Assembly (NCBI GenBank): GCA_964509695.1
Contig: CAZDXN010000002.1
Location: 6,621 to 70,620, forward strand
Origin: an uncultured Pseudomonadales bacterium
GTDB taxonomy: Bacteria > Patescibacteriota > Microgenomatia > UBA1400 > MFAQ01
Reading direction: 5' to 3'
DNA: 64,000 nt
The notes beneath the pieces were generated by a model. That model searched no databases, had not been told where the DNA came from, and was given only the letters and a program-made list of their open reading frames with translations. The position numbers and the translations under genes are program-made. Below are positions 17,018 through 63,618 of this stretch, one piece after another; position 1 is the first letter of the stretch, and every line of letters starts with the position of its first letter.

Positions 17018-17032
17018 CTGGTAAACTAAATC

Positions 17033-17982: not shown

Positions 17983-18033
17983 TTTAGTAGTGACACGGTG
18001 CCACAGTGACACGGGGTATTGTAGAATGAAATT

Positions 18034-35479: not shown

Positions 35480-35484
35480 TGATT

Positions 35485-36340: not shown

Positions 36341-37132
36341 TCAAAGTTTTAAGAGGGTGTCAACGGCCTTGCGTTTCAGGAGAATGCTTTCGAGATACGG
36401 TCGGTTCTCGGTTTTGACATCGGCGGCTCCCTGAAGTGATTTTACCTCATCTTCTGATACTGTCAATTTCATGTCCTTGGCAATGGCAAAAAGGAGAAAG
36501 TCGAGTGTCAGACTCTCGGTGGCGGTCTTTTGATACTCTTCCCGAAGCTGTTCCGCGGTCCTGTTTATAGATTTGAGATAGTCGGTGACGGACAAATTTA
36601 GAGTTTCGGTTTGACTGACGAGACGGCCGAGGGAGCGGTTCACTTCTTCGCTAACAAGGGCTTCGGGGATGTCCATTTTGACTGAGTTGAGGAGGGTGTC
36701 GAAAACAAGCTTGAGTTTTTTGTCGTCGTTTTCCGACTTGGCCTTGGCGATGGCGACCGTGATTTTGGTCTGATAATCCCCTAGTTCGAATTCGGGATAG
36801 AGAGGAAATTCGAGGGTAAAAATCCAATCGGGTTTACTTGTATCTTCTTTGGTGAGGTGGGGGTTGGCGATTACTTTGAGTTTCAAGTCCTTGACGGCTT
36901 GATCAATGGCGTGTCCCAGAAGATGGGTTATGGTTTTTTCTTTTAATCTCTGTGGGTCAAGGCTGTTTTTGACGAGATTTAGTGGCGCTTTTCCCTTGCG
37001 GAAGCCTTTGACGGTAGTTTCTTCTGCGAGGTGGGCCAGAGTGTGCTGTAGTTGCTGCTCGACCTCTTTACTGGGGACGATGATAGTTACAATTGCGGTG
37101 CTTTTTTCTTGTTTCTCGAGTTTGATTTCCAT
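36341..37132 (-). CDS. tig: trigger factor, short form (ribosome-binding N domain plus C domain, no obvious PPIase domain)
   Basis: TF signature VKGFRKGKAP in the N domain. 263 aa. Confidence 0.7.
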   Translation of the reverse strand: MEIKLEKQEKSTAIVTIIVPSKEVEQQLQHTLAHLAEETTVKGFRKGKAPLNLVKNSLDPQRLKEKTITHLLGHAIDQAVKDLKLKVIANPHLTKEDTSKPDWIFTLEFPLYPEFELGDYQTKITVAIAKAKSENDDKKLKLVFDTLLNSVKMDIPEALVSEEVNRSLGRLVSQTETLNLSVTDYLKSINRTAEQLREEYQKTATESLTLDFLLFAIAKDMKLTVSEDEVKSLQGAADVKTENRPYLESILLKRKAVDTLLKL

Positions 37133-37140
37133 GCAGGCGA

Positions 37141-38889
37141 TTATACAGTAAGTATTTGAGCTGTTAAAATATGAGGGCTAAGCCGAGGTGGCGAAATTGG
37201 CAGACGCGCATGGTTTAGGACCATGTGGGGAAACCCTTGGAGGTTCAAGTCCTCTCCTCGGCACAATAGAGTACTTTTTAAGTAGCTTTTCAAATTATCC
37301 CGATTTGACGAGCTATTTTTAGGTTCAAGCGGTCCATTTTTATCATTACTACCTTTTGCAACCTCTTTTAACTTCAAAAAGATAAATCTAGGCTGATATT
37401 CAAGTTTTTGATCTAGTAAGATCGGGTTCAAGCCGATTGCCTTGAATATCACTTTTTTGTCCTCAGAATCGCCAGATTCAAACCGTTCTTTAGCAAGTAA
37501 CGCAAACTCAAAGGAGTCTTTGGCGACTTCAGACCAATCATCACCGTTATTATTTGCTTGGGCTAATTGTCTGGCAATTTGCTCTTTCTCCATCATAAGC
37601 TCGCGTTTTCTGTCGGCAAACTCCGAGTCAGATAGGAGGCTTCCGTCATTCTCGGGTGAGATCTTCAGGGCGATCAGATTGTCGATCCTGCGATTTACAC
37701 CATCCAAGGCGCTTTGGAGGGCTTCTAAGCTGGTTTTGTTAACCTCCTGATACTTATCCTTCGTTTCATCGAGTGCTTCATAAGCCCAGTCGATAAATTC
37801 TTTATCTTCAATCTCAAAGTGAGACAAATCACTCGAAAACTGACCTTCAAGCTTGGAGGTTGATATGTAGGGCTGACTGCATTTTATTTCACCCTTTTTT
37901 GTACAGCTATAGTAACCAAATATTTGCTCCGTTCCATTCTTATATTTCTTTTTATGTTCTTGGGCTGTAATGCAGTAATGACACTCGCCACATTTCATGA
38001 TGCCATTGAGAGCAAAATCATGTTTTTGCAATCTGGCCTTGGATCTTCCATCTAAAATATCTTGCAATAAGTTGAATTCCGCGTCGGTAATCATGGCTTG
38101 ATGTTGCCCTTGATAGAGTTTGCCGTTATAAATAAATCTGCCGGTGTAAAACGGATCACGCAATATTCGGTGCATCCAACTTTTCACAATAGGTTTACCA
38201 GATTTAGTACTCCGTATTCCGAGGATCTTGGCTTCCCGCATGAGCGCTTCAACGCTATAGTTGCCAGTTAGTGCTAGGTCAAATAACTTTCTCATGAGCG
38301 GAAAGTACACAGGATGAGGTGATATGTCTCTTAAGCCTTGCGGTTTCTCATGGTTATTTCTATATCCTGGTCTCGCTTTGCCCGGAAATACGCCTCGTTC
38401 TGCTTTAAGTTTTAACGCCTCAGTTACATTGACGCTTTTATTGTCGTTTTCAAGCTTGGCCTGCGTACACAGCAGGTTAAGCATAAATTTATCGCTTGGA
38501 TTATTCCGAAATGACTGATATGGGGTCACGACTTCGAGTAACTTGCCTTGATCCATTAGATAAATGATGCGACCGGTATCCACAGTATTTCTGGATAAAC
38601 GAGATGGATTAAGCAGTACGATAGTATTTACGTCTCCGTCCTCGATCATTTGTATGAGTTTTCCAAATACTGGCCTACCTGGGACTTTTGCTGTTCGTTG
38701 CTCTTGCAAGGGTTCACCAATAAGTTCCACGCCTCGCTGTTTTATGAGTGAAGTCAGGTTTGTTATTTGATCTGGAAGCGATTGGATTTGTCGTTCATCT
38801 GACTCACTACTTTTACGACAATACATCATGTAGCGTGGTGACACAGGAAGTTGTGTATTGTTTTGATTTTTATATTCTGTCAGACGCAT
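37141..38889 (-). CDS. large serine recombinase (integrase); start placed at the Met preceded by AAGGAG
   Basis: Resolvase domain YCRKSSESDERQ (catalytic Ser) and NPSRLSRN. Recombinase domain, zinc ribbon CGECHYC...YYSC and a C-terminal coiled coil. The last roughly 40 codons run antisense through tRNA-Leu. Confidence 0.85.
   Translation of the reverse strand: MRLTEYKNQNNTQLPVSPRYMMYCRKSSESDERQIQSLPDQITNLTSLIKQRGVELIGEPLQEQRTAKVPGRPVFGKLIQMIEDGDVNTIVLLNPSRLSRNTVDTGRIIYLMDQGKLLEVVTPYQSFRNNPSDKFMLNLLCTQAKLENDNKSVNVTEALKLKAERGVFPGKARPGYRNNHEKPQGLRDISPHPVYFPLMRKLFDLALTGNYSVEALMREAKILGIRSTKSGKPIVKSWMHRILRDPFYTGRFIYNGKLYQGQHQAMITDAEFNLLQDILDGRSKARLQKHDFALNGIMKCGECHYCITAQEHKKKYKNGTEQIFGYYSCTKKGEIKCSQPYISTSKLEGQFSSDLSHFEIEDKEFIDWAYEALDETKDKYQEVNKTSLEALQSALDGVNRRIDNLIALKISPENDGSLLSDSEFADRKRELMMEKEQIARQLAQANNNGDDWSEVAKDSFEFALLAKERFESGDSEDKKVIFKAIGLNPILLDQKLEYQPRFIFLKLKEVAKGSNDKNGPLEPKNSSSNRDNLKSYLKSTLLCRGEDLNLQGFPHMVLNHARLPISPPRLSPHILTAQILTV
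37182..37263 (+). tRNA. tRNA-Leu (anticodon UAG), class II long variable arm, no encoded CCA
   Basis: GCCGAGG/TG/GCG-AAATTGGCAGA-CGC/G/CATGG-TTTAGGA-CCATG/TGGGGAAACCCTT/GGAGG-TTCAAGT-CCTCT/CCTCGGC/A. Acceptor stem perfect. Confidence 0.9.
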
Positions 38890-39079
38890 AAGTACTCCTT
38901 TCTTCAATCTCGGCATTATTCCGTTTATTCTGTGAACGCTTCTGCTTTGGTCTGATAAGAACTTCCATCATGTTGAGAAAATGATTTGCCAATTCGGTTG
39001 CCTCCTCATCGTTGAGAGTGATTTCATATTTGTCTTTATATAGCTTCTTAAACTTATCTAAATACTCTTTACTAATCAT
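38870..39079 (-). CDS. small hypothetical protein upstream of, and overlapping, the recombinase start
   Basis: MISKEYLDKFKKLYKDKYEITLNDEEATELANHF... Operon position suggests an excision/directionality-type accessory role, which is inference only. Confidence 0.35.
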   Translation of the reverse strand: MISKEYLDKFKKLYKDKYEITLNDEEATELANHFLNMMEVLIRPKQKRSQNKRNNAEIEERSTYASDRI

Positions 39080-39101
39080 GGCTGTACTCTTAAATAAACT
39101 A

Positions 39102-39178
39102 CAACTATAGTTACAGAATAGCAATTATAGTTGCAGTTGTCAAGCGTTTTTCAAGGCTAAATTACAACTATAGCTATA
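39102..39178. promoter_or_regulatory. three copies of a palindromic operator-like motif in a divergent promoter region
   Basis: CAACTATAGTTACAG (39102), CAATTATAGTTGCAG (39122) and CAACTATAGCTATAG (39164). AACTATAGTT is a perfect palindrome. Confidence 0.5.
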
Positions 39179-39198
39179 GTGAATTTTAGGCACAATAA

Positions 39199-39495
39199 AT
39201 GTCCTATAACTTGATGAAAATGAGATTCTTTGATAAACTATCGTCAAATTACGAGTGCTATACTACGATTATGAATATGATTCCAGATGAAAAAAGTCAA
39301 AAGGCTTTCGGCAAAAACTTGAGATTAGTAAGAGAGGATAAAAACCTCTCTCAAGAAGAAGTCGCAACGCTGAGTAAAATTTCTACCACGCACTACGCAG
39401 GTATCGAACGCGGGGAAGAAAATCCCACTTTTTCAGTGATCGAAAGCATCTGTAAAACACTCAAAATCAAGTCTTCTCAAGTGCTTCCATTTTAA
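39199..39495 (+). CDS. XRE-family helix-turn-helix regulator; the true start may be the internal MNMIPDEK
   Basis: FGKNLRLVREDKNLSQEEVATLSKISTTHYAGIERGEENPTFSVIESICKTL. Confidence 0.8.
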   Translation: MSYNLMKMRFFDKLSSNYECYTTIMNMIPDEKSQKAFGKNLRLVREDKNLSQEEVATLSKISTTHYAGIERGEENPTFSVIESICKTLKIKSSQVLPF

Positions 39496-39559
39496 TTTTT
39501 GCTCACAGGGGAAACTTCCTGTATACTCTCAACTAAATCCTGCCTATTAAGGTCGGATT

Positions 39560-42151
39560 ATGCCAAATATAACCATCTTCCATTCAGTTATCTTCAATTA
39601 CGTAACATCTTTCCTTGTTTCTTTGAGTCCCTACATTGTTCCGTTAAAGGTAGTGCTTCTGGCTCTATTGTTTCTGTATGGTTGTTATCAATTATTCCGG
39701 ATCTATCTGATTACCAAGCAGCTAAAAGAGAAAAGTATTCTTTTTGAACTCCAACCACTCAAGAACACTGAGCAATCTTCCTATACCACTCAACAGTTAT
39801 TTGCCATTTTACATGGACTGGCCAAACAACGCACATTTTTGCACAGATTTTTTGATGTCACTAAAAACTACGCTTTCGAAATCGTCTCTACTAAAGATGG
39901 AGGTATCACGTATTACACCCGCATTGGTGAAGATGAGGCTGATTTGGTTAAAAAAACGCTACTATCATACTTGCCGGGAATCAGTGTTAAAGAAACAACT
40001 GATTATCTCGAGCAACTCACAAACCAGCACAAACGAATTTCAAACTATAAACTTGCCGGACATTTTGCCTACCCGCTCAAGCATCAGGACGATTTAACAC
40101 TCCACGATCCGATAGCCTATCTCACGGGTAGCATGACCAAGCTTAGCGAAGATGACTTGATTGCTTTTCAGGTAGTACTCTCACCGCTTCGCAAATCTAC
40201 TCTTTCCGCCGTTTCGCGCATTTCACATCTGATTTATTCAGGTAAAGATTTAGTCTCAAATATTCGTGATGAAGCCAGCTCAAATCCTTTTACGGCAGTA
40301 CTCAAGCTAATATTTCTCCTTATTGTCCGAATTGTTATGCTCCCGATCGGCATTCTGGTATTTATTGCCACAGATGGTCGGGAAGGTCCGGTGTTACGAC
40401 TTCCCACAGACCAATTACCACTAAAAACCATAAATCCGTACCAGCAGGAATTAGAACAAATGGTAAAGGGTAAGCTCGATCAACAGCTCTTTACTACCTC
40501 GATTCGTCTGATGGTAGCAAGTAATAACTACTCTGAACTGCGAAGGCGGGAGCGTGGTTTTCAGTCTGCCTTATCAACCTTGAATAATTCAGAATATCAG
40601 GCACTTGTCCCATCGTTTCGCTTACGAGTAAAATTCTTTGACCAAATAATGGAAGCTGTTTACAAACTGCGTATATTACTTCCTACTAGATCATTTATTC
40701 TCTCAGCTACTGAAATCTCCGATCTATATCACTTTCCCTATACCAGTACGACCAAAACTGAGGATTTGCTCAAGCAACATAGCAAAGAACTTCCGGCACC
40801 TCTTTCACTCAAACAAAAAACTGCTCTCGATATTTATTTTGCTAAAAATACCTATGGTGGGACTGAAACCAAAATTGGACTAACTGCTGATGAGAGAAGA
40901 AGGCATGTCTATATTCTTGGAGCTACCGGAACTGGTAAATCTACGATGCTGTTATCGATGATTAAACAGGATGTCGATAACAACAAAGGCTTGTGTGTTG
41001 TCGATCCCCACGGTGATTTGATCGAGCAAATAATCTCCGTCATTTCTCGGGATCGCATTGCTGATGTCGTTTACTTTAACCCCGATGACATTGGCTATCC
41101 GATGGGAATTAATTTACTTGAGTTAACCCCAGGACTGAGTGAAGAGGATACAATCCGCGAGAAAGAATTTATTGCCGAAAGTATTATTTCCGTCTTTCAT
41201 AAAATCTACTCCGATAAGTATTCCGGCCCTCGTATGGAGTACATCCTGAGAAATACTATCCATACGGCCTTTACGATTCCTGACGCAACACTATTTACCA
41301 TATACAAACTTCTTATAAATACTCACTTCAGAACGTCTGTTGTACGGAACCTTACAGACGAAAACCTCAAGGACTTCTGGAACTACGAGTTCAAAAAAGC
41401 CGGAGATTACCAAAAGGTAAAAATGATTTCCCCCATTACCAACAAAATTGGGCGGTTTCTGTTTTCGCCAACTGCCAAGAGAATACTTGAACAAGGTAAG
41501 TCTACGATTAACTTTGATACGATTATGAACGAAGGTAAAATCCTGCTCTGTAATCTTTCCAAAGGCAAGATTGGAGAGGACAATTCGGAAGTCTTTGGAG
41601 TACTTATTATGGCCAAAATCCAATTGGCCGCCTTAAAGAGAGCCAGGATGAAACAGGAAGATAGAAAAGACTTCTATTTGTATGTTGATGAGTTCCAGAA
41701 CTTTGCTACACCTGCATTCGCTCAAATCCTCTCAGAAGCTCGTAAATACAGATTAGGTGCGATTCTTGCTCATCAAACTACCTCACAGCTCGAAGATATA
41801 TCGCTGGTAAACATTACCCTGGCTAACACCGGAACAGTCATTTGCTTTAGGACGGCTAACCCAGAGGACGAGCGGGTGATCTTGCCACAATTTAGGCCAT
41901 ATGTTGAACAAGGTGAAATTGCCAGTCTACCCTCATATCACTTTTATATGAGACTTGGGGCACTTAATCCTGAAGAGCCGTTTTCTGGCTCAACAATTCC
42001 AGTTAAGATCGAATACAGTCAAAATAGGATGAATGAGGTTATTGAATCGTCGAGAAAATTGTACGCAAAAAAATTCACTCAATCAGTTGAACAATCCAGA
42101 AAATCACAAGAAAAACAGACTTCTAAGAGGGTATATTCTGCTGTTCCATAA
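39560..42151 (+). CDS. type IV secretion coupling protein (VirD4/TraD/TraG-like ATPase)
   Basis: N-terminal TM helices, Walker A ILGATGTGKST, Walker B FYLYVDEFQNF, and LAHQTTSQL. Confidence 0.85.
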   Translation: MPNITIFHSVIFNYVTSFLVSLSPYIVPLKVVLLALLFLYGCYQLFRIYLITKQLKEKSILFELQPLKNTEQSSYTTQQLFAILHGLAKQRTFLHRFFDVTKNYAFEIVSTKDGGITYYTRIGEDEADLVKKTLLSYLPGISVKETTDYLEQLTNQHKRISNYKLAGHFAYPLKHQDDLTLHDPIAYLTGSMTKLSEDDLIAFQVVLSPLRKSTLSAVSRISHLIYSGKDLVSNIRDEASSNPFTAVLKLIFLLIVRIVMLPIGILVFIATDGREGPVLRLPTDQLPLKTINPYQQELEQMVKGKLDQQLFTTSIRLMVASNNYSELRRRERGFQSALSTLNNSEYQALVPSFRLRVKFFDQIMEAVYKLRILLPTRSFILSATEISDLYHFPYTSTTKTEDLLKQHSKELPAPLSLKQKTALDIYFAKNTYGGTETKIGLTADERRRHVYILGATGTGKSTMLLSMIKQDVDNNKGLCVVDPHGDLIEQIISVISRDRIADVVYFNPDDIGYPMGINLLELTPGLSEEDTIREKEFIAESIISVFHKIYSDKYSGPRMEYILRNTIHTAFTIPDATLFTIYKLLINTHFRTSVVRNLTDENLKDFWNYEFKKAGDYQKVKMISPITNKIGRFLFSPTAKRILEQGKSTINFDTIMNEGKILLCNLSKGKIGEDNSEVFGVLIMAKIQLAALKRARMKQEDRKDFYLYVDEFQNFATPAFAQILSEARKYRLGAILAHQTTSQLEDISLVNITLANTGTVICFRTANPEDERVILPQFRPYVEQGEIASLPSYHFYMRLGALNPEEPFSGSTIPVKIEYSQNRMNEVIESSRKLYAKKFTQSVEQSRKSQEKQTSKRVYSAVP

Positions 42152-42181
42152 TTAGCCTACCGGTAGGTTAATTCTTTTTTT
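42152..42181 (+). terminator. rho-independent terminator after the coupling-protein gene
   Basis: ttagcctacc/ggtaggttaa near-perfect palindrome followed by ttcttttttt. Confidence 0.6.
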
Positions 42182-42253
42182 AGTTTAGACCGATAGATAG
42201 GCATTTTCTATTTTTACTTTTACCTCTTATTCCTTATATATAAGGGAAGAGAA

Positions 42254-43060
42254 GTGATACAATCACTTCAAGCTGCCCAAACTACAACTATGGACGGCCA
42301 CAAACTAACAGACTCTCAAACAAATATTCTCCACTATCTCTATCGATTCCGGTTTCTTACCAGTATTCAACTGTCTAAAATTCTTAATCAAACAATCCGA
42401 TATACCAACTATCATCTCAAGGTACTCTCAGAAAAAAACTTCATCGCCAAACACTATAATCGAACACTCGGCCTCGCTAATCAACCAGCCGTTTACTATC
42501 TAGCCTCAGGAAGCATAAAGGCTTTACAAGATCAGAAAGATATAGACAATCAAGCCCTTAAACGCATTTACCGCGAAAAAAACCGTTCCCAACAATTTAT
42601 TGCTCACGCGTCATTTTTAGCCGATTATTTTCTATTCATAAGAGTCGATTCTGAAAAGTCACAACAAATACTTCACTTCTTTACCAAAACAGATCTATTG
42701 GCACATCCGTACTTTATTCATCCTTTGCCAGATGCTTATTTTGCCAGAGTAGATAAAATAAGTATGACAAAGCGCTACATGGTAGAAGTGGTCGAAGATA
42801 GTTCTCCGCGGTTTGCACTCCGGAAACGAATTGAGCAATACTGCGACTATATTGATGATGGAAAATTCACCGAGGTCACAGGCCATGATTTCCCAACCCT
42901 ACTATTTATCTGTCCAGGCTATGCCAGCTTAATCTATCTCAAAAAACACATTGCCCGCATATACGAAGAAACCTCACTTGATCAAGTTGATATCTACCTC
43001 GCTACCCGTGAGGGTGCATTTTCTGGCAGTTGGGAAAGGGTCGAAGCTGAAGATAGTTAG
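42254..43060 (+). CDS. replication-relaxation family protein (candidate relaxase-like / DNA-processing protein), GTG start
   Basis: N-terminal wHTH LTDSQTNILHYLYRFRFLTSIQLSKIL, typical of that family. Position after the coupling protein. Confidence 0.6.
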   Translation: MIQSLQAAQTTTMDGHKLTDSQTNILHYLYRFRFLTSIQLSKILNQTIRYTNYHLKVLSEKNFIAKHYNRTLGLANQPAVYYLASGSIKALQDQKDIDNQALKRIYREKNRSQQFIAHASFLADYFLFIRVDSEKSQQILHFFTKTDLLAHPYFIHPLPDAYFARVDKISMTKRYMVEVVEDSSPRFALRKRIEQYCDYIDDGKFTEVTGHDFPTLLFICPGYASLIYLKKHIARIYEETSLDQVDIYLATREGAFSGSWERVEAEDS

Positions 43061-43257
43061 TAATCTTCGCTACGGCCAAGAAACCGATTCAGTTCCTTAC
43101 GACCTTCTTCAGTTTGGCGAAACTCCCAAAATAGTTTTGAACCCTTGTTGCTTATGAAGGGTATGAACTCGGGTAGTTTGTCCATCTCGATTTTACGAAA
43201 CTCCTGTAATCTCATGTCTACTGTATAACCTTTAAAAACTGGTAGTATTCTGATCAT
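43057..43257 (-). CDS. hypothetical small protein
   Basis: 66-aa ORF, no motif recognised. Confidence 0.3.
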   Translation of the reverse strand: MIRILPVFKGYTVDMRLQEFRKIEMDKLPEFIPFISNKGSKLFWEFRQTEEGRKELNRFLGRSEDY

Positions 43258-43316
43258 ATATTTTTCCTTTCTTGGATACCCATCCGCGGGGTGGTTAGCC
43301 CCGCGGTAGGTAACTT

Positions 43317-43631
43317 TTATAACTTGGCACTTGGTACAACCTGACTAATTGGCTTCTCGCCGAAATATAAATCCCGCTCGATCCCTAACCCAAACCTACC
43401 CGTATAGCTTTGGAGTTCTTCGAGTGAGAACGAACCCCACTCATCATTCCAATCGCCGAAGATCGAGACATATCCGAAAAATTCCTTTGACTCCGGATCG
43501 TATTCCGTAGCGTACCAAGTCCCCGCACCAGTCGGATTAAAAAACTTCGCAACCACTATTGGATCTGCACTGTCCTCCTGTCTCCCTATCTTGGCGAACC
43601 TTGTTAGTAGTTCCTTGGTTAATAGCTTCAT
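43317..43631 (-). CDS. DUF2958-like protein, common on conjugative elements
   Basis: VAKFFNPTGAGTWYATEYDPESKEFFGYVSIFGDWNDEWGSFSLEELQS...GLGIERDLYF matches the pattern I recall for DUF2958. Confidence 0.6.
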   Translation of the reverse strand: MKLLTKELLTRFAKIGRQEDSADPIVVAKFFNPTGAGTWYATEYDPESKEFFGYVSIFGDWNDEWGSFSLEELQSYTGRFGLGIERDLYFGEKPISQVVPSAKL

Positions 43632-43845: not shown

Positions 43846-44190
43846 ATGGAAAAGTTTATCCTACATCAAAAAACCTATGATTTTATTCTTTATCTGTACC
43901 CCATCATCAACCGTTTGCCTAAAAATCATCGTCTTATACTCGGAAGGAAGCTTGAAGAATTAGCACTCGATCTTCTCATGTCTCTCATGAAAGCCAATAA
44001 AGCGCGGGAAGAAAAGAGAAAGCGGTTACAACTTGAAACATCGGACACGCTGGATTATCTGCGTATCGTGCTTCGGCTGGCGAAAGACACCCGTCTTATT
44101 AGTGTCAAACAGTATGCACATAGTGCCGAAAAGCTCAACGAAATCGGGCGCATGCTTTCCAGTTGGATGGGGTCAATCCGCAGTGTATGA
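43846..44190 (+). CDS. avd: DGR accessory variability determinant (Avd; four-helix-bundle / 23S rRNA-IVS protein family)
   Basis: 114 aa. N-terminus HQKTYDFILYLYPIINRLPKNHRLILGRKLEELALDLL. Basic helical protein immediately 5' of the TR. Confidence 0.85.
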   Translation: MEKFILHQKTYDFILYLYPIINRLPKNHRLILGRKLEELALDLLMSLMKANKAREEKRKRLQLETSDTLDYLRIVLRLAKDTRLISVKQYAHSAEKLNEIGRMLSSWMGSIRSV

Positions 44191-44221
44191 TACAAGAGGG
44201 AAAGATCAGTCAAAACGCAAC

Positions 44222-44341
44222 ACGCCTTTCTCCGCGGCGGCAATTGAAATAACACGTCCAACGCTGGGGCGTTTACAGCGAATCTGAACAACACGCCGGG
44301 GAATACGAACAACAACATCGGGTTTCGTTGCGCCAGCGATC
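44222..44341 (+). repeat. DGR template repeat (TR)
   Basis: 120 nt colinear with 49370-49489. It has 32 adenines and 11 in-phase AAY codons. Confidence 0.93.
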
Positions 44342-44540
44342 TTGCTCACTTTGCCCGTACCCGCAAAGTACGCGCCAGAACGTGTGGTATGTATTTACGG
44401 ATACATATCCGGGGTTTTATGGATCACAGCGGTCTTTTCCTTTCCGATAGTGGGTTTGGGAAAACATCATGCCTGTATTTTTACTATTCTCGACAAGCGG
44501 ATGGTAAAGTAAATGGGTGATAACAAGATAGGGTACGAAA

Positions 44541-44577
44541 GACAAACCCTGCGACAAAAGCGGGGTTTGTCGTTTTT
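44541..44577 (+). terminator. terminator-like hairpin plus U-tract ending 1 nt before the RT start codon (TR-RT spacer)
   Basis: gacaaaccctgc-gacaaaa-gcggggtttgtc (12 bp with one G:U), then gttttt, then ATG at 44578. Confidence 0.5.
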
Positions 44578-45669
44578 ATGTATACACACCTCTATGACCT
44601 GGAAAATTTATTGTATGCGTATGCGCAGGCACAACAGGATAATCGCTATAAGCGAAAGATTTGTGCGTTCACTTTTTCACTTGAGGAAAATCTCTTTGAT
44701 TTGAGGTGGGAATTGAGCCGGGGCCTCTATGTGCCGCGTCCGTATACCTACTTCATGCTTCATGATCCAAAGACGCGCAGCATCGCCGCGCCGAATTTTC
44801 GTGATAGAGTTGTCCAACATGCATTGGTCAATGTCATTCAACCTCTTTTTGAACGTCAATTTATTTACGACTCCTATGCTTGCCGCACGAACAAAGGCAC
44901 ACATTTTGCCGCCAAGCGACTGAAGAAGTTTCTCATGGCGGCTCGGTCTTTCCATGGCAAAGATACCCCAATCTATGTGCTTCAGTGTGACATTCGCAAA
45001 TTCTTCCAGAGTGTTTCTTGGGATATTCTTCTTAAGATTATCGGCAAAACTATTTCCTGCCAGAAAACAGTGTCTCTGATTAAGACGATCGTTACTACCC
45101 ACCACAATGTTGTACCTGCCCAAACACCTCTTTGTTCGCAATTATCACTTTTTTCTTCCAGTGAAAACCCTGCGGAAACAAGTATTTCAGTTGCGCAGAG
45201 AACAGGTTTACCGATCGGCAATCTGACGAGCCAGCTCTTTGCGAATGTTTACCTCAATGCGTTGGATCACTTTATTAAAGACCGCCTGCGTATCCGCTGG
45301 TACGGACGATACATGGACGACTTCTTTGTGTTGCACCACGACCGAGCGTATCTAAAACAGCTTTGCGACACGATTAATACTTTTCTTCAGCAGAAACTCC
45401 ATCTTTGCCTGCATCCAAAGAAATTAACGATTAAAAATGTTTCTAGCGGCGTGCCGTTTGTCGGATACCGGATATTTTACGACCATGTGCTGGTTCGGGG
45501 AAATACGCTTCGACGCATTGAGCGTAGCTATCGCTCTAAAGTAAAACAGGCCAAGCACGGCCGGTTGACCAGTCAAAAACTCGCTCAAACCAAGGCTTCC
45601 ATTATCGGTCATTTCAAGCACGCAAACAGCTACGGTTTGACCAAAAAGTTATTTGAGAAAAATGAATAG
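44578..45669 (+). CDS. DGR reverse transcriptase
   Basis: RT motifs include RYMDDFFVL (YxDD) and LPIGNLTSQLFANVYL, the [LIV]GxxxSQ signature that replaces the QG motif in DGR RTs. No maturase/X or endonuclease domain. Confidence 0.9.
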   Translation: MYTHLYDLENLLYAYAQAQQDNRYKRKICAFTFSLEENLFDLRWELSRGLYVPRPYTYFMLHDPKTRSIAAPNFRDRVVQHALVNVIQPLFERQFIYDSYACRTNKGTHFAAKRLKKFLMAARSFHGKDTPIYVLQCDIRKFFQSVSWDILLKIIGKTISCQKTVSLIKTIVTTHHNVVPAQTPLCSQLSLFSSSENPAETSISVAQRTGLPIGNLTSQLFANVYLNALDHFIKDRLRIRWYGRYMDDFFVLHHDRAYLKQLCDTINTFLQQKLHLCLHPKKLTIKNVSSGVPFVGYRIFYDHVLVRGNTLRRIERSYRSKVKQAKHGRLTSQKLAQTKASIIGHFKHANSYGLTKKLFEKNE

Positions 45670-45743: not shown

Positions 45744-46958
45744 ATGGCCGTCACAATATCAAAAAATCCGTTCCGAACGCCGTTTTTATCCCACTTTATT
45801 TTTACTCCTGATCTATTACCGTTCTCTGATGAGGAAATTGTAAAGCGCGATCAAGATCTTGCCGAATTTGAACAGATTTTTTTGAACCCGGATATAGAAA
45901 AAAACCTGATCAGTAAAAATGAACTTTTGGCCTCCTATGCGATTTCCAAAGCTGAACATTCGACACTTACCTTGGCGGAAGCACAAAACGTCTATACCGT
46001 AGTGCTTGCCGCACAGGAGTATGTCTTTATTCGGGAAAAGTTAAACGCCGGCAAACGGCTCACGCAAAAAGATCACGACAAGTTGGAGTTTTTTAATATT
46101 GCGAAAACGTTTCGAGAGTTTAATCAAGTTCCGTTTTCCCTCGATATGCTATCCCCACATTTTATCCAAAACCTCCATGCCTCCCTTACGCAAGGTATGG
46201 ACGTGTTTAAAACATATCTTAGTGAGTTCACGGTGTACAAATCCGGTAACTGGCGGGACAATGATCGCATACGTGTGGGCGAGTATGCTCCCGCGCCGCA
46301 TATACAAATTGCCAGTGGTGTGGATGAACTTATCGCCTGGGTGAAAACGCATCCATCCCCCGTAGGAATTGCTATCTTTCATACTGCATTCTACGCATTG
46401 CACCCGTTTCACAACGGTAACAAGCGGATTTGTCGTATCCTGGAGCATTTGTTATTTCGGAGCATTGGCCTGAATCGGAAAAACCTCTACAGTACCTCTT
46501 ACTATTACCACAAAGAAAAACTCAGATATTATAAATATCTTCTTTACAGCCTCGAGCGCAACAACCTCAACCACTTTGTCAACTTCATTCAGGAATCATT
46601 AATGTTATCCATGCTTTCGGTGATCAAAATGAGCCTGGAATCAAAACGTCACGAGTATCTTACCAAACATACAACAGGTGATTTGATCTTACGGAATATC
46701 TTAAAGCCTTTGGTGAAACGTGAGGAACTACAGTTTAAACACCTTCTCAAACCTGTCGGTCATAAAATGGCACGACAAACTTTTGTGTCCAACTTAAAGC
46801 GCGCAGGGCAAGAAAACATTATCGTCAAAAGAGAGTCCGGGCGTTCTACCTATTACCGCCTGGCATTGATAACCCAGGAGGAAAACGTCGTTGCCCAGTG
46901 GCTGACATTTATCAAAGAACGGTTATCCTTTGTTCCCGATGATTTTCTTCTCGCATAA
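45744..46958 (+). CDS. Fic/DOC-family protein with a non-canonical active-site motif
   Basis: HPFHNGNKRICR versus the canonical HPFx[D/E]GNGRxxR. Confidence 0.7.
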   Translation: MAVTISKNPFRTPFLSHFIFTPDLLPFSDEEIVKRDQDLAEFEQIFLNPDIEKNLISKNELLASYAISKAEHSTLTLAEAQNVYTVVLAAQEYVFIREKLNAGKRLTQKDHDKLEFFNIAKTFREFNQVPFSLDMLSPHFIQNLHASLTQGMDVFKTYLSEFTVYKSGNWRDNDRIRVGEYAPAPHIQIASGVDELIAWVKTHPSPVGIAIFHTAFYALHPFHNGNKRICRILEHLLFRSIGLNRKNLYSTSYYYHKEKLRYYKYLLYSLERNNLNHFVNFIQESLMLSMLSVIKMSLESKRHEYLTKHTTGDLILRNILKPLVKREELQFKHLLKPVGHKMARQTFVSNLKRAGQENIIVKRESGRSTYYRLALITQEENVVAQWLTFIKERLSFVPDDFLLA

Positions 46959-47055
46959 CCTGTCGGTAGATTAGTGGCTTGCACTTGCGCTTGCATACCC
47001 CAGACATAAATACTACTATGATAATGTACGGGATTGGACATCAATCCTGGTTTTT

Positions 47056-47403
47056 GTGTACCGTCGGACACATATGAAAAACGAAGCCAATATACCCACT
47101 AAAATCGCCATTTTTCAAGGCAAAAAAGTGCGCAAGATTATTTTCAATAATGAGTGGTGGTTTGTAATAGTCGATGTGGTTTCCGCTCTTACCGATTCCG
47201 CACAACCCGATGGTTATGTTAAAGATATGCGACGTCGAGATAATGAACTTTCCAAAGGGTGGGGGCAAATTGCCACCCCCCTTTCTGTAGAAACTGCTGG
47301 TGGAAAACAAAAACTGAATTGTGCCAATACAGAAGGATTATTCAGGGAATTCAATTTAAACCCGTCGAATTCGATGGATTTAGGAATGAGGTTTACACTA
47401 TGA
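47056..47403 (+). CDS. Bro-N / antirepressor-like DNA-binding domain protein, possibly 3'-truncated
   Basis: FQGKKVRKIIFNNEWWFVIVDVVSALT...ANTEGLFR. The sequence becomes unrelated at the point where homologues normally continue. Confidence 0.5.
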   Translation: MYRRTHMKNEANIPTKIAIFQGKKVRKIIFNNEWWFVIVDVVSALTDSAQPDGYVKDMRRRDNELSKGWGQIATPLSVETAGGKQKLNCANTEGLFREFNLNPSNSMDLGMRFTL

Positions 47404-47413
47404 AAAAACTACC

Positions 47414-48247
47414 ATGACCACTCAAAAAACACACAAAATTTCGGTAAAAGGGATAGAAATCGTAATCTTTGTTAATGAAGAGTCTGACTATATTTCTCTG
47501 ACTGATATCGCTAAATTTAAAGACAAAGAACGAACAGAATACGTGATCCAAAATTGGATGAGAAATCGTGATACTATCGAATTTTTGGGAATTTGGGAAC
47601 ATTTGAACAATCCAAGTTTTAAACACATCGAATTCGATGTGTTTAAAAATAATGCAGGATCAAATAGTTTTTCCCTTACACCAAAACGCTGGATAAAATC
47701 AGTTAATGCTATTGGGTTAATTAATAAATCTGGTCGATACGGTGGCGGTACCTTTGCTCACAAGGATATTGCATTTGAGTTCGCGTCCTGGATCTCAGCA
47801 GAATTCAAACTCTACATCATTAAAGAATTCCAACGCCTGAAAAATGAAGAACAAAAAAAGATTGAATCTGGTTGGGATGTCAAACGAATTCTCACCAAGA
47901 TCAACTACAAAATCCACACTGATGCCATTAAAGAACATTTGATCCCTAAAAACATCTCTAGCAATAGGGCTAACATTGTCTACGCTAACGAAGCAGATGT
48001 ATTAAATGTAGCCTTGTTTGGCAAAACTGCTAAAGAATGGCGAGACGAAAACACCAGTAAAGATGGGAATATCCGTGATTTTGCAGATGTCACTCAACTG
48101 GTCGTGCTGGCTAACCTGGAGGGGATGAACGCCGAGCTTATCCGCCAAGGCATGATGCAACCTGACCGACTGGTACAACTTAATCAGATTGCTATTGTCC
48201 AGATGCGGTCATTGCTTGATAATAGCAGTGTAAAGAAATTACTATGA
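47414..48247 (+). CDS. KilA-N domain protein
   Basis: YISLTDIAKFK...NWMRNRDTIEFLGIWEHLNNPSFK...GRYGGGTFAHKDIAFEFASWISAEFKLYIIKEFQRLK. Confidence 0.8.
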   Translation: MTTQKTHKISVKGIEIVIFVNEESDYISLTDIAKFKDKERTEYVIQNWMRNRDTIEFLGIWEHLNNPSFKHIEFDVFKNNAGSNSFSLTPKRWIKSVNAIGLINKSGRYGGGTFAHKDIAFEFASWISAEFKLYIIKEFQRLKNEEQKKIESGWDVKRILTKINYKIHTDAIKEHLIPKNISSNRANIVYANEADVLNVALFGKTAKEWRDENTSKDGNIRDFADVTQLVVLANLEGMNAELIRQGMMQPDRLVQLNQIAIVQMRSLLDNSSVKKLL

Positions 48248-49395
48248 CAAAAATTATTGAGCGATTGAAGCACTACCTCTTTACCCCCCGTTTCCACTTT
48301 TCGCGGTTTCAATTTAATCTGGTCGCCCTTCTTTTTATCACCGTCGGTTTCATTACCGGCACGTATCTCACGCTCAAGGGCATCACGAGCATCTTTGCGC
48401 TCAATGATACAAATAAAACCTGGACGTTTAATACCGCCAATGCCGGTAGCTACACGTATGATTCAACGCTGGTCACGGTGGATGATACAGGAGCGCATTC
48501 GGTGGCCAACAAACTCACCAATCCCGCCTTTGCGTCGGATAATTCCTCCTGGAGTACGGGAGCGGTGCCAGCCTCTGGCTGGGTGGAAGTGCCGGGCAAC
48601 AGCACGTACTCCACAACAAACTTTTTGGCCATGAAATATGAAGCCAAATGTGCGGCGACCTCTGACGCCACAACAGGCTTGACCAGTCCTGACTCGGGGT
48701 ATCACACGTACTCGGATAGCACCACCACCTGTACGTCAGGCAACAGCAAACAAGTCGTCTCGGTGGCCTCCGGCTACCCGATTGCCAACGTTTCACAAAC
48801 CAACGCCATCACCCGCTGTAGTACGGTATCCTTAAACGGCAACGCTGCGCACCTTATTACCAACGCCGAGTGGATGACGGTAGCTCGAAACGCCGAAGCC
48901 CAGGCGGGTAACTGGAGTTTGGGAAGTGTGGGAAGCGGGTATCTTTTCGCCGGACACAATGACAACGCCCCGGCCCTGGCGCTTGCTGCCTCAACCACCG
49001 ACACCGGCAACAATGCCTGCGCCTACACCGATACGGCAGGAACAACGGAAGCGCCAAGTAGCTGTCCCACCAATACCGGCAATAACACGTCCGGGACTGC
49101 CGGCAATCAAAAGCGCGTTTTAACGCTCTCAAACGGCGCATACATTTGGGATATCCCCGGCAACGTCTGGGAATGGACCAATGATACGATTCAAGGCAAA
49201 GACCAGCCGACCAATGCCTCTCCGGGCTTTGCCTGGCGGGAGTTTACCGCGCTGACCACCTACGGCACGCTCACCTACGACAAAGTCCGTCCTTTGGCGA
49301 GTACGTACGACGCCACGTACGGCGTAGGGCGCATGTATTCCGACGGAACTTCCTCTAATACCACCGTCTACGCCTTTCTCCGCGGCGGCGCTTGA
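48244..49395 (+). CDS. DGR target protein, N-terminal part as read with the standard code: TM anchor plus FGE-sulfatase/C-type-lectin-fold domain, ending at a TGA inside the VR
   Basis: TM FNLVALLFITVGFITGTYLTL. GNVWEWTND (FGE/CLec signature). Ends ...YAFLRGGA-TGA. Confidence 0.8.
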   Translation: MTKIIERLKHYLFTPRFHFSRFQFNLVALLFITVGFITGTYLTLKGITSIFALNDTNKTWTFNTANAGSYTYDSTLVTVDDTGAHSVANKLTNPAFASDNSSWSTGAVPASGWVEVPGNSTYSTTNFLAMKYEAKCAATSDATTGLTSPDSGYHTYSDSTTTCTSGNSKQVVSVASGYPIANVSQTNAITRCSTVSLNGNAAHLITNAEWMTVARNAEAQAGNWSLGSVGSGYLFAGHNDNAPALALAASTTDTGNNACAYTDTAGTTEAPSSCPTNTGNNTSGTAGNQKRVLTLSNGAYIWDIPGNVWEWTNDTIQGKDQPTNASPGFAWREFTALTTYGTLTYDKVRPLASTYDATYGVGRMYSDGTSSNTTVYAFLRGGA

Positions 49396-49489
49396 AATGA
49401 CGCGTCCGTCGCTGGGGCGTTTACAGCGAGTCTGGGCGGCACGCCGGGGGATACGGGCGGCTACATCGGGTTTCGTTGCGCCAGTGATC
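49370..49489 (+). repeat. DGR variable repeat (VR)
   Basis: Gap-free match to the TR at offset 5148. 17 substitutions at TR adenines and 1 at a C near the 3' end. Encodes ...GYIGFRCASD. Confidence 0.93.
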
Positions 49490-52400
49490 CCGTAGCCATC
49501 TCTCAATCTTTCTCCTCTTCTTCCGGCCGCGCCGGCGGCGGAAATACCGTTACTATAGGCTCTATTTCAGACGGGAAAATCTACCAAAGTGTGAACGTCG
49601 GCGATACCTCCACGTATGATTTCTCGGCCTATGTCTATGACGCCACCACCGGCAACGTCGGCGGGACGGTGACATCCTCTATCGCCCAGCTCTACTACAA
49701 CGGCGCAACCATCGCAACCACATACACCGATGCGGGTTCGGGCTGGTGGAAACTGACGGGGACGTTGACCGGCGCCAACGCCTCCCGCGAGTACGGCGTC
49801 TTGGTCAAAGCCGGGAAAACCGTGAAGGTTGATGATTTTACGTTATCCAAACAAGGTACCTACAGCGTCTATACAACAAGCGCCTATTCCAACGCGCAGG
49901 TCAATACTTGGGATACGTTTTGCGAAGGGACACTGGTTGGTTCCACCTGCACCACGGACTCGACCGCCACCGGTAACGCGGCAATCAAGTACCAGCTTTG
50001 TACCGATGACGGCTCCACCTGCCAATCCGGTTCGTCTTGGAAATACTGGACAGGGTCTGCGTGGGCTGCGGCGACTGACACCACAACGACAGTCAACAGT
50101 GCTGCCCAACTGACACAATCTGCGATGCAGGCGCTCCCGATTACCTCCCAAAAAATTTCGGTGAAAGCGATCTTGACGTTTGGCGGGAGTGATACGCCAC
50201 TCCTCCCCCACGTTTCGATAGGACTGACCACGGATACCACGGCTCCAACGACCAATGCTTCAGCAATCGCCATGACCCGCTCAAGCGGCGGAACGAGTAT
50301 GTCCAGTAACGACTGGAGCAAAGGCTCATCACCATACTTTTCCTGGACGGCTGGGGCGGATAACGCGGGCGGATCTGGACTCAAGGGGTACTGTTTATAC
50401 TTGGGAACTGATTCTGCGGGAGCACCATCGACAAGTAAGGGACTTTTGGGCACTTCGCCCGTTTCCACAACCGGTACTACCTGCCAGTTTATCGTCTCGG
50501 CAACCAGCGTCGATCTGGCTACCAGCGGCTACATCGGGACGGCACTCACCACCTCCAGTTCACCGTACTATTTTAATATCAAAGCTGTGGATAACTCTGG
50601 AAATATTTTTTCCGGCACGAGTGTCCAGTTTCAATTCCGGTTTGACAACACCGTGCCGACAAATACATCCTACATCTCCTGTGCGTCCGGCTCGTTTTCC
50701 AACGTGGCGGATATGAATTTTAGCTGGCCTATTTCCGGAAGCGCTGCCTCTTCCGATGCCAATGCCGGACTTTTAGGCTGGCAGTACCAGATCAACTCGA
50801 CGTCGGGAACGTGGCTCGGGACAACCACGGAGGCACTCCTTGGAGTGACCAACTATATTCCCTCTTCGGCCACGTCCCGCACCCTGTCGCAATCCCAGGA
50901 TGGCAGCTCCATCGTCACCGGAACCAACGTGGTGTATTTCCGCACGGTGGACGCGGCGGGCAACCCATCGGCCGACTCTACCATCCGCACCTGTAACCTC
51001 TCGTATGGCGGAGCTGCTCCGTCATTTGGCGGGACGGATACCGTGACGGTGACACCCACCACGTCGACCGCAAACTCATACGCGCTTTCCTGGCCGGCAG
51101 CTACCGCCACATCCGGTCAAACGGTAGCCCATTACTACTACATGGTCAATACTTCGCCTCCAAGCACGCTTGCCACCCTTCAGGGAAACGCGTCCACCTA
51201 TATCGACAACGGAACCACAAGGACTGTCTCTGCTGCGGCTCTTCCGAGCGTGAACAAGGGAAGCAATACGGTGTATGTGGTGGCGATTGATAATGCAAGT
51301 ACGCCCAATTACTCGCCCAGTAACGTCATTTCCGGCACGTTTACCTTGAGTTCAACCGATCCGGACAACGTTGGGAGTCTGGTGGCTTCCGACAGCAGTA
51401 TCAAATCGTCATCCCAGTGGAACGTCACGCTGACCTGGGTTGCACCCACATATCAAGGAGCAGGAAACCTAACGTATCTGGTCAAACGGTCAACAGATAA
51501 CAGCACCTTTACGCAAGTCGGAACCTCAACAGGTTTGTCCTATGTGGACAACGCTCCCTCATCAGCGCTGTACTACTACAAAGTGTATACCAAGGACGGC
51601 GCCAGTGCTCAAAGTTCGGGAACAAACGCCGTATCGATAACGCCGACCGGAAAATGGACGAGCGCACCGAGCCTTTCCACCGGTCCGGATGCCGGCAGTC
51701 TCACGACCAAAAAAGCGACGATCACCTGGACAACGTCCCGGTCTGCCGATTCAAAAATCCAGTACGGAACAACCTCGGGAAGCTACGGATCGGTCGAGCC
51801 GAGTAATTCATCGCAAGTCTCTTCCCATTCGATTCAGTTGACCGGTCTCAATCCGGGCACCACCTATTATTACAAAGCCAAATGGACTGACGAAGACGGC
51901 AACACGGGTACATCTGGTGAGAAAAGTTTTTCGACAACCTCGGCCCCAACCGTGAAAGACGTTTTGGCCAAAAGCATCGGACTGACGACGACCACGATTC
52001 AATACACCAGTCTCAACGCCAGCAAGGTGAAGATTTATTACGGCACCACCACATCCTTTGGCGGATCAAAAGAGGTGTCCACCTCGACCTCGGAAACAAC
52101 CTATACCACAGAACTCACGGGGTTATCTGACGGCACGAAGTATTACTACAAGATCAATACTTTTGATTCTGATAGCACGGAGTACGAAGGAACAACGCTC
52201 GACTTTACCACCCTGCCCCGGCCAAAAATTACCAATGTCCGTATTCAGCAAGTCGCCAACACCGCGCAGTCCACCATTCTCATTACCTGGACCACCAACA
52301 CCGACGTGTCTTCCATCGTCACCTACTACCCCGAAGGCCAGACCGGGTACGCCAGGGATGAAGTCAACGTGGCGCTCACCCGCGGTGACCACCGGATGAT

Positions 52401-52905: not shown

Positions 52906-52909
52906 CATT

Positions 52910-53671
52910 ATGACCAACGCCACGATTCATATTGCTCATGTTTCCAAATCATTCCACGTCGGAGTGCAGGATGTGCCGGTACTGAGAGATATCTCCTTTG
53001 AGGTATATCCCAATGATTTCTGCGTCATTTTTGGCCCATCGGGGTGCGGCAAATCCACGCTCCTGCATACGATTTTGGGGCTGGAAGCGCCAAGTGCGGG
53101 AACCTGCACGTTTCTTTCTCAAAATTTGTATGAGGGCATGGATGAGGACGAGCGGAGCGATTTTCGCAAAAACCACGTGGGCATGGTTTATCAACAGCCC
53201 AACTGGATTAAGTCGCTCACTGTTTTAGAAAATGTGGCCTTTCCATTGATACTGATGGGGAAACCAAAGGGTGAAAGTTTGGAAAAGGCAAACGCCATGC
53301 TCGAGGTCATGGGGATGCGTGACTGGTCGGGGTACGCTCCGACGGAACTCTCGAGCGGTCAGCAACAAAAAGTGGCTCTGGTTCGGGCGCTTGTGACCAA
53401 TCCCGAAGTCATTATTGCCGACGAACCAACCGGAAACCTGGATTTTGAATCGGGTCAGGAACTCATGCAGTTGCTCGTCACTCTCAACAAGGAACAGGCA
53501 AAAACGGTTCTCATGGTCACCCATGACTTGGAATACTTAAAATTCGCCAAAACGGTGGTCAAGATGTTTGACGGCGCCATCGCCGGAGAATACGCGGAAA
53601 AAGACAAAGAAACGTTACTGAAAGAGATTAAAGGGAAACGAGGGAACGGAAATATAATATGCCAACGCTGA
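52910..53671 (+). CDS. ABC transporter ATP-binding protein (MacB/LolD/FtsE-like)
   Basis: Walker A GPSGCGKST, signature LSSGQQQ, Walker B IIADEPTGNLD. Confidence 0.9.
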   Translation: MTNATIHIAHVSKSFHVGVQDVPVLRDISFEVYPNDFCVIFGPSGCGKSTLLHTILGLEAPSAGTCTFLSQNLYEGMDEDERSDFRKNHVGMVYQQPNWIKSLTVLENVAFPLILMGKPKGESLEKANAMLEVMGMRDWSGYAPTELSSGQQQKVALVRALVTNPEVIIADEPTGNLDFESGQELMQLLVTLNKEQAKTVLMVTHDLEYLKFAKTVVKMFDGAIAGEYAEKDKETLLKEIKGKRGNGNIICQR

Positions 53672-56166: not shown

Positions 56167-56195
56167 CCCCCTCAATCTTTGGCCTATGAATCACT

Positions 56196-60376: not shown

Positions 60377-60378
60377 CC

Positions 60379-63052: not shown

Positions 63053-63054
63053 AT

Positions 63055-63612: not shown

Positions 63613-63618
63613 TAACAT

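Follow-up and report, generated by a model that had tools for sequence, protein, structure and literature searches.

The stretch of DNA analyzed here (64,000 nucleotides of contig CAZDXN010000002.1, hereafter the window) very probably harbors a 27.73-kb integrative and conjugative element (ICE) that was inserted by a large serine recombinase (LSR) at the tip of tRNA-Leu(UAG) in the chromosome of a member of Candidatus Collierbacteria (Microgenomates, candidate phyla radiation (CPR)/Patescibacteria), and whose integrase gene is split by the insertion. According to the proposed mechanism, the LSR inserted the element into the last nucleotides of the tRNA gene by strand exchange within GCAC (tRNA positions 71–74), and, since the attachment site attP of the element lies inside the LSR gene, integration splits this gene. 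Codons 1–552 stay at attL, their frame running on through the antisense tRNA and a promoter to a chance stop in the −10 box of the trigger factor gene tig, while the native tail of 35 codons is left at attR, a short distance ahead of a PLD-like gene. On excision, an LSR of 587 aa would be restored. The coordinates of all features are compiled in Table 1.

Boundaries of the element and attachment sites

An earlier note on this DNA had proposed an element inserted at tRNA-Leu, with its junction at the tRNA itself, and relatives carrying an empty site bear this out. A search with tig retrieved four contigs of Candidatus Collierbacteria (L015–L018; tig identity of 88–94%), in which a 199-aa gene, tRNA-Leu(tag), and tig are contiguous, with no recombinase in between. 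The BLAST breakpoints of these contigs join window position 37265/6 to window-equivalent position 65002, within 1 to 6 nt, mapping the junction to the extreme 3′ end of tRNA-Leu; the comparison of filled and empty sites yields the insertion size given above. The tRNA-Leu sequence is the same in the filled site of the window and in the four empty sites. A tRNA carried by the element was rejected as an explanation, the empty sites holding the same tRNA beside tig.

The change from core to accessory genes at the tRNA, likewise described before, agrees with the Pfam scans, which assigned tig, DUF5660, and an aminotransferase to the left side and a coupling protein, Replic_Relax, a diversity-generating retroelement (DGR), Fic, an ABC transporter, a type IV secretion system (T4SS), and Thoeris genes to the right side. 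GC skew amounts to +0.10 to +0.27 up to approximately 37 kb, is about zero or negative over 37–64 kb, and returns to +0.11 to +0.29 at 11.5–12 kb of L001 (about 64.6–65 kb in window equivalents). Since the skew recovers past the element, its change is regarded as a mark of the island; a replication terminus was discarded as its cause, the values being strongly positive again after the element.

Sequence information beyond the window was obtained from L001, a part of the public contig JACPEU010000006.1 (GCA_016183355.1) that overlaps the window by 10,946 nt and runs 8.3 kb past its end. From position 35493 on, the window equals this contig letter for letter. The sole difference between the two was located at 35428–35492 (15 substitutions and an 11-nt indel), beside tRNA-Val near the contig end, and could be caused by strain microheterogeneity or by an assembly-end artefact.

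As suspected in the earlier note, attR lies beyond position 64000, its core being located 991 bp past the window end, and the tRNA 3′ segment has a single match in the window when up to three mismatches are allowed. A second copy was also missing from the 8.3 kb beyond at the same threshold. The expectation that attR would repeat this half of the tRNA was not borne out: attL and attR have only the four bases GCAC in common. For a serine recombinase, no long repeat between the attachment sites is to be expected, a tRNA 3′ repeat being the pattern of tyrosine integrases. Because the chromosomal tRNA-Leu gene does not encode a full CCA end, the tRNA remains intact, without being rebuilt and without duplication of any segment.

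The location of the crossover was further supported by related loci. Straight after GCAC, the sequence (C/A)ATA(C/G)AG(A/T)ACTTTTTAAATAG is conserved in 11 loci despite differing tRNA acceptor stems; since the stems are host-specific and the sequence following GCAC is conserved with the element, each of these loci is assigned a crossover at the tip of its tRNA. Two further attL/attR pairs have the cores GTGCAC (L022, on one contig) and TGTGC (attL of L006 and attR of L023, on different contigs that are linked by a shared orphan-tail ORF). All three cores have GTGC in common, which corresponds to GCAC on the opposite strand. The attP core, (A)T(G/T)GTGCACCAT, represents a near-perfect palindrome inside the LSR gene, from which 35 codons remain to the native stop. 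It reads ATTGTGCACCAT in the window element, whereas L021 and the reconstruction of L022 have ATGGTGCACCAT, in which the palindrome is perfect.

Two side observations show that secondary targets other than tRNA exist. The small element of L022 occupies a palindromic non-tRNA site (TGCACATGTGCAC), and in protein P0254 the N-terminus of a DUF2958 protein is fused at ...GTWC to an LSR tail, which suggests that a different element received an insertion in its DUF2958 gene.

The split integrase gene and its native tail

The recombinase frame had been described as open to position 37141 and antisense to the entire tRNA, and its first stop is indeed the TAA at 37141–37143, 8 nt from the ATG of tig at 37132. 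For the tRNA itself, ARAGORN confirmed the start reported before, whereas the end is 37264 rather than 37263. Cys552 of the LSR is encoded by 37261–37263; residues 552–578 correspond to the antisense strand of the tRNA, and residues 580–591 to the 49-bp spacer between tRNA and tig. Across the family, this antisense tail varies in both length and sequence. The spacer contains two promoter-like sites, each a consensus match only, namely TTAACA-16-TATAAT for tig on the minus strand (37167..37140; 11/12 matches) and TATACA-17-TAAAAT on the tRNA side on the plus strand (37142–37170). By direct reading, the stop of the integrated LSR frame falls in the TATAAT of the tig site (37140–37145), a 6/6 match to the −10 consensus, so that the LSR gene would be transcribed and translated head-on into the tRNA and the promoter of tig.

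The proposal that the C-terminus of the integrase is specified by host DNA and changes on excision was substantiated at both ends of the element: residues 553–591 are encoded by host DNA, and the native tail of 35 aa was found at window-equivalent 64885–64990, 27.7 kb from attL. Joining the element side of attR to the LSR frame reconstructs an open reading frame (ORF) of 587 aa ending C-TIWDDVRTYLTSSIDPKEKASLIIAFAHFKKEEKV. Its stop overlaps the ATG in GTATGA, which precedes the called start of the PLD-like gene (L001 11811) by 20 nt and shares its frame. An unsplit homologue (P0108, locus L021) ends C-TIWDETRTYSTSRIDSKEKTALLEAIEYFTKEV, homologous to the reconstructed tail. Furthermore, L022 (6007–11710) represents a complete mini-element of 5.7 kb with both LSR parts on one contig, in the order orphan tail ORF, PLD, 80-aa gene, 582-aa gene, M78, helix-turn-helix (HTH) gene, 59-aa gene, and LSR; its orphan tail likewise matches the reconstructed one.

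Using a profile of three tails, 22 orphan-tail ORFs of 37–75 aa were identified in other genomes, each featuring a variable N-terminus and the conserved tail. One of them, P0246, resides on a contig of 384,795 bp, the length also of the Gottesmanbacteria contig bearing L006; its neighborhood (L023) comprises attR, the tail, PLD, a 76-aa gene, cargo, M23, and VirB4. Three comparisons of the tail over 29 codons resulted in dN/dS values of 0.13/1.70, 0.03/0.61, and 0.34/0.97 (ratios of 0.05–0.35), indicating from these codons that the native tail is under purifying selection as a protein. Selection on a tail that becomes part of the LSR upon excision alone is an indirect sign that the elements still cycle.

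The recombinase family and its horizontal spread

In all related loci for which the 3′ end of the LSR gene was recovered (10 out of 10), a tRNA-Leu gene lies antisense at this end, with the anticodons tag (three loci), gag (five), cag, and aag (one each). An antisense overlap recurring in each of ten loci is not attributable to chance. In addition, the backbone consisting of LSR, orf84, HTH, coupling protein, Replic_Relax, and DUF2958 is 69–92% identical on contigs of Gottesman-, Collier-, and Shapirobacteria, while the tig genes of the hosts sharing it reach 30–36%. Between the window element and L007, for example, the LSR (92%), coupling protein (91%), and HTH regulator (90%) contrast with tig (36%) and DUF5660 (44%). 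A similar backbone next to diverged host genes indicates recent transfer between distant hosts.

In L012 (10001–10543), the last approximately 177 LSR residues (query 398–574) still abut tRNA-Leu(tag), and this locus looks like the remnant of a decayed element at the same kind of site. L019 encodes a second LSR (16620–18128, minus strand; 30–38% identity) that reads antisense through the whole of tRNA-Arg(tcg) (16623–16697, plus strand), and targeting of tRNA tips may be common among serine integrases of the CPR.

The LSR of the window contains the domains Resolvase (PF00239, residues 31–176, E = 1.5e-17), Recombinase (PF07508, 206–291), and Zn_ribbon_recom (PF13408, 303–364), all above the Pfam gathering cut-offs, and the predicted protein includes the serine-containing resolvase motif YCRKSSESDERQ. 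The nearest solved structures are SPbeta YokA/SprA-type recombinases (residues 29–469 aligned; weak, E of about 4e-10), and named NCBIfam models scored below their curated cut-offs (XisF with 90 versus 375 bits, CcrB with 63 versus 900 bits). More than 1500 homologues were detected, the best 120 of them originating from Microgenomates and other CPR groups with identities of 59–91%. The C-termini of the best homologues share ...NLKNYLKSSLWC, followed by G/R-E-D-L-N-L..., the antisense translation of GCACCA and the T-arm. In 106 homologues, the KSSLWC motif is present; it is followed by an antisense-tRNA tail of variable length in 66 of them and by a stop after one or two residues in 33, while seven differ.

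The exact product of 591 aa was not found in the protein index searched, and the indexed gene calls of JACPEU010000006.1 include no gene at the LSR locus (L003 8263–10001), perhaps because the overlap with the tRNA left it uncalled in the public annotation. Just upstream, overlapping the LSR start, orf84 is conserved in 10 out of 11 loci (54–86% identity, tblastn) and preceded by a promoter-like site (39143..39115). No Pfam or PHROG family matched it above threshold, and a search for an excisionase or directionality factor with PHROG and NCBIfam profiles gave no informative match for orf84, the 77-aa ORF, the PLD-like protein, or DUF2958; a role of orf84 as regulator or directionality factor is possible.

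Conjugation genes

The element comprises the conjugation modules that had been read from the sequence before, profile matches being obtained for a relaxase, a coupling protein, VirB4, and further mating-pore genes. Three domains of the coupling protein scored above their cut-offs, and identities in six related loci are 82–91% for this protein and 69–90% for Replic_Relax. The Replic_Relax family (PF13814) corresponds to MobC in the terms of CONJscan (PMC5357655) and has a PD-(D/E)XK fold (PMC3424549); the MOB_C class is assigned here from the Pfam match and this listing. VirB4 exceeded the cut-off of the NCBIfam CD1110 family (368.9 versus 325 bits). T4SS_pilin (two copies), TrbC/VirB2, and TrbL_4 scored above Pfam gathering thresholds and M23 is present, whereas PrgI remained slightly below (26.4 versus 27); the TraC-like assignment is a precomputed Pfam match. 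The genes from the pilins to VirB4 recur in L006, and M23 together with VirB4 in L023. Beside the LSR, the HTH_3 gene is found in 10 out of 11 loci (58–90% identity), the exception being the truncated remnant L012.

The order of the backbone is LSR, orf84, HTH, coupling protein, MOB_C relaxase, DUF2958, cargo, pilins, VirB6-like, VirB3-like, TraC-like, VirB4, M23, cargo, 77-aa gene, PLD, and tail. By the usual definition from gene content, the conjugation module is complete and the predicted gene set corresponds to that of an ICE of the monoderm type (MPF-FATA-like); conjugative transfer would be its function.

Mobility of the element and alternative explanations

Several observations weigh against a functional ICE as described above. 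Excision of the window copy left no direct sign: a degenerate attP pattern run over metagenome contigs matched L020 only, a lone attP junction that belongs to another genome with the chromosome type of L019, and neither two attP patterns nor a scan with the LSR protein produced a match in IMG/VR. The unsplit LSRs P0062 (L019/L020) and P0108 (L021) reside in chromosome-like contigs, which the simple model does not explain. According to a survey of Patescibacteria T4SS (PMC12102498), most of these systems are devoid of relaxases and were co-opted for other roles, so that conjugation by the present element is a prediction. attR is located outside the window and was taken from the matching public contig. 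Regarding the exact crossover dinucleotide, the center of the attP palindrome is GC and thus symmetric, and the motifs of the att arms are too weak to place it. LSRs normally require an asymmetric central dinucleotide for polarity, as known from work on Bxb1 and phiC31; CA or AC would provide such polarity here.

The unsplit LSRs with intact attP were located at L019 10001–11716 (junction near 11660–11700), L020 3244–3312, and L021 10001–11740, and the genes around them (tig, tRNAs, RuvB, SecG, UvrC) look chromosomal. In L021, the unsplit LSR lies beside a decayed element, where an insertion sequence (rve) transposase gene neighbors the truncated remainder of a coupling protein gene; the tRNA-Leu(gag) site located 7.7 kb from this LSR is empty.

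An improbable, though not negligible, alternative is that the island was inserted by the LSR but is now fixed and domesticated, its T4SS serving the episymbiotic lifestyle by exchange of protein or DNA with the host bacterium. T4SS are widespread and chromosomal in Patescibacteria (PMC12102498), no excised form of the window element was found among metagenome contigs or in IMG/VR, and L012 and L021 are degenerate relatives. Domestication is difficult to reconcile with a backbone of about 90% identity between hosts whose tig genes share 36%, or with a relaxase, coupling protein, and VirB4 that are all present and look intact. Nor does it account for purifying selection on a tail that forms part of the LSR protein solely in the excised state, or for relatives without the element.

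A classical tRNA island, in which a tyrosine-type mechanism or a tRNA 3′ half borne by the element rebuilds the tRNA and leaves a displaced repeat at attR, would fit the integrase beside an intact tRNA 3′ end and the retained first C of CCA, but is regarded as refuted at this locus: the second tRNA 3′ copy is missing over the range searched, attL and attR share 4 bp only, the acceptor stems follow the host while the sequence after GCAC follows the element, and the Pfam scan of 28 element ORFs recorded no tyrosine integrase (Phage_integrase). The same scan recorded no phage structural gene, and a prophage or phage satellite with a serine integrase is hardly credible either. Bro-N, KilA-N, the LexA/CI-like repressor, the HTH regulator, and the retroelement do also occur in phages, and the TraC-like protein weakly matches a PHROG terminase (E = 2.3e-5); against this stand a full T4SS with coupling protein and relaxase, Pfam scans devoid of capsid, portal, tail, and lysis genes, and the lack of relatives in IMG/VR. 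Finally, an accident of gene packing, in which a chromosomal recombinase beside the tRNA has a frame open by chance and nothing is inserted, could appeal to the unconserved length and sequence of the antisense tail and to the fact that an open stretch of 40 codons is not rare (approximately 15% for random sequence by our estimate), but is refuted, to all practical purposes, by the four empty sites, the same junctions in 10 out of 10 loci, and the native tail at the far end of the element.

Cargo and further genes of the element

Cargo genes are arranged in two slots, the first comprising the DGR, Fic, Bro-N, KilA-N, FN3, and ABC transporter genes, and the second the LexA-like, Thoeris, and NUDIX genes. 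The template and variable repeats of the DGR differ by 18 mismatches, 17 of which coincide with template adenines. Both repeats hold an in-frame TGA (RGGA*ND), and the assembled target ORF ends in its own variable region at 49395. Lectin-fold variable regions normally have Trp at such a position, and mutation of the TGA codon could produce Trp, Cys, or a stop. The FN3/Ig-repeat gene (49591–52905) has a GC content of about 55%, compared to about 40–45% for the element, which suggests its separate acquisition. The defense slot is located near the right end (61698–64000 and L001 10565–11050); in the related element of L023 (6856–10119), the corresponding stretch, bounded by the 76-aa gene and M23, is taken up by NERD and AAA_13 genes.

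Table 1. Features of the element, its host flank, and its attachment sites (window coordinates unless stated otherwise).
Feature	Position	Strand	Basis or remark
tig, short 263-aa trigger factor, host left flank	36341..37132	-	Trigger_N and Trigger_C domains
Divergent promoter-like sites, tig/tRNA spacer (49 bp)	37140..37170		consensus matches only
LSR ORF, integrated form, 591 aa	37141..38916	-	codons 1-552 are element
Host-encoded LSR C-terminal tail, residues 553-591	37141..37260	-	translation; boundary set by empty sites
tRNA-Leu(UAG)	37182..37264	+	ARAGORN; intact; left half of attB
attL, shared core GCAC: tRNA G71, C72, A73 (discriminator), C74	37261..37264		strand exchange within
attL, sequence			CCTCGGCAC followed by AATAGAGTAC (element side begins AATAGAG)
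attP right arm, over last element LSR codons (...NLKSYLKSTLL)	37265..37310
orf84, conserved 84-aa ORF overlapping LSR start, just upstream	38870..39124	-	tblastn
HTH_3 (Cro/CI-type) regulator, divergent from LSR	39199..39495	+	Pfam and PHROG scans
Type IV coupling protein, VirD4/TraG-like, 863 aa	39560..42151	+	TrwB_AAD_bind, TraG-D_C, T4SS-DNA_transf
Replic_Relax (PF13814), MOB_C relaxase class	42254..43060	+	38 bits versus cut-off of 25.3
DUF2958 protein, backbone	43317..43631	-	Pfam; recurs in relatives
DGR	43846..45669	+	bAvd 43846-44190, template repeat 44222-44341, reverse transcriptase 44578-45669
Fic, Bro-N, KilA-N domain proteins	45744..48247	+	Pfam
DGR target gene, FGE-sulfatase / C-type lectin fold	48244..49489	+	variable repeat 49370-49489
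1104-aa FN3/Ig-repeat surface protein and MacB-type ABC transporter	49591..55698	+
Mating-pore genes: T4SS pilin, pilin-TrbL/VirB6-like fusion, PrgI/VirB3-like, TraC-like, VirB4, M23 wall hydrolase	55834..60984	+
LexA-like S24 peptidase repressor	61070..61696	+	Pfam
Thoeris-type defense: ThsB(TIR), ThsA(Macro), ThsB(TIR)	61698..63612	+	Pfam
NUDIX gene, cut by window end	63619..64000	+	beyond window: 77-aa gene, PLD-like, orphan LSR tail, attR core
attR	core L001 11937-11940, window-equivalent 64991-64994		CAGATGGTGCAC followed by TACATATTATTGGAGG; short form GATGGTGCAC followed by TACATAT
Empty sites			CCTCGGCAC followed by A(C/A/T)...TATTGGAGG
Predicted attP			contains CCCAGATGGTGCACAATAGAGTAC
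Predicted attB			...CCTCTCCTCGGCAC + TACATATTATTGGAGG...

Significance of the recombinase family

Most noteworthy here are the target at the tRNA tip, the host range within the CPR, and the size of the family, LSR-driven ICEs with an integrase altered by its attachment site being already known. The last four nucleotides of tRNA-Leu genes serve as the target of a large and well-conserved LSR family, which leaves the tRNA undamaged and acts on several isoacceptors in several named candidate groups of the CPR. The elements are the first precisely bounded mobile elements with a CPR T4SS found in the searchable literature and thus bear on the question of whether these systems are conjugative or co-opted. 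A compact LSR with a short, universal, and non-disruptive target could also serve the genetics of CPR bacteria, where manipulation is hard.

Going further, it is possible, if somewhat doubtful, that the LSR family constitutes an undescribed tRNA-Leu-specific clade that may be a major vehicle of Patescibacteria-type T4SS, and that the split gene acts as a switch. Many CPR T4SS clusters would then be true conjugative elements with MOB_C relaxases. As a switch, the free element would produce the LSR of 587 aa with a conserved, selected, helix-like C-terminal tail, and the integrated element a tail-less or junk-tailed LSR of other stability or directionality, whereby the LSR would sense its own integration state. 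The loss of this conserved tail on integration provides an opening for tests of how LSR activity could be tied to this state.

Comparison with known systems

The LSR shares with SPbeta SprA/YokA and other phage integrases the order of catalytic domain, recombinase domain, and zinc ribbon, but differs in its target and matches their sequences weakly. The target of SprA is spsM, and to our knowledge no split-gene arrangement is known for integrases of the SprA/YokA type.

Free and integrated forms that encode different proteins are known from integrases with attP inside the gene (SSV1-type archaeal viruses, Mx8, BPs), which, unlike the LSR, are viral tyrosine recombinases. In SSV1-type viruses and in mycobacteriophage BPs, with its integration-dependent immunity, a gene spanning attP is split or truncated by integration. 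For BPs, a regulatory role of the truncation has been demonstrated, whereas such a role in the window element is a hypothesis. Myxococcus phage Mx8 is cited as a case of an attP-spanning integrase in PMC4701971.

With the islands and ICEs of tyrosine integrases, such as the ICEs of actinomycetes, the window element has in common a target at the tRNA 3′ end, an integrase abutting the tRNA, and a tRNA that is still functional (scheme of Williams 2002). Those elements belong to a different enzyme superfamily and rebuild the tRNA from a core of 20–45 bp with a displaced fragment, whereas the core here is 4–6 bp long and nothing is duplicated. tRNA genes are regarded as the domain of tyrosine integrases, and serine integrases mostly insert in ORFs (PMC9303363, PMC10484663); tRNA is never mentioned in the extensive survey of LSRs by Durrant et al. 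(bioRxiv 2021.11.05.467528). A description of the present LSR family was not found in the open-access papers and bioRxiv preprints covered (CPR/Patescibacteria, serine recombinases, conjugative elements, tRNA targets).

The T4SS itself resembles those of Patescibacteria (MPF-FATA-related; Microb Genom 2025, PMC12102498) in featuring VirB4, VirB2-like pilins, VirB6/TrbL-like and PrgI/VirB3-like proteins, and a wall hydrolase. In that survey, the systems were described as chromosomal, mostly without a relaxase, and co-opted; for a minority of genomes, a MOB_C homologue was reported near a coupling protein (58 MOB_C homologues), and integrases and tRNAs are mentioned zero times each. In contrast to this picture, the T4SS presented here belongs to an element that has precise boundaries and that relatives lack.

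The closest precedent is provided by the rumA-targeting ICEs with a single serine integrase (Tn1549 and Tn5252 families of streptococci and clostridia; Ambroset et al. 2016, PMC4701971), which likewise combine a conjugation module of the monoderm type with an LSR, carry the attachment site inside the integrase gene, alter the integrase C-terminus by integration, and have very short direct repeats. Their target, however, is a protein-coding gene whose 3′ end is swapped reciprocally, whereas the element described in this study occupies the tip of a tRNA gene, which stays intact, in a CPR host.

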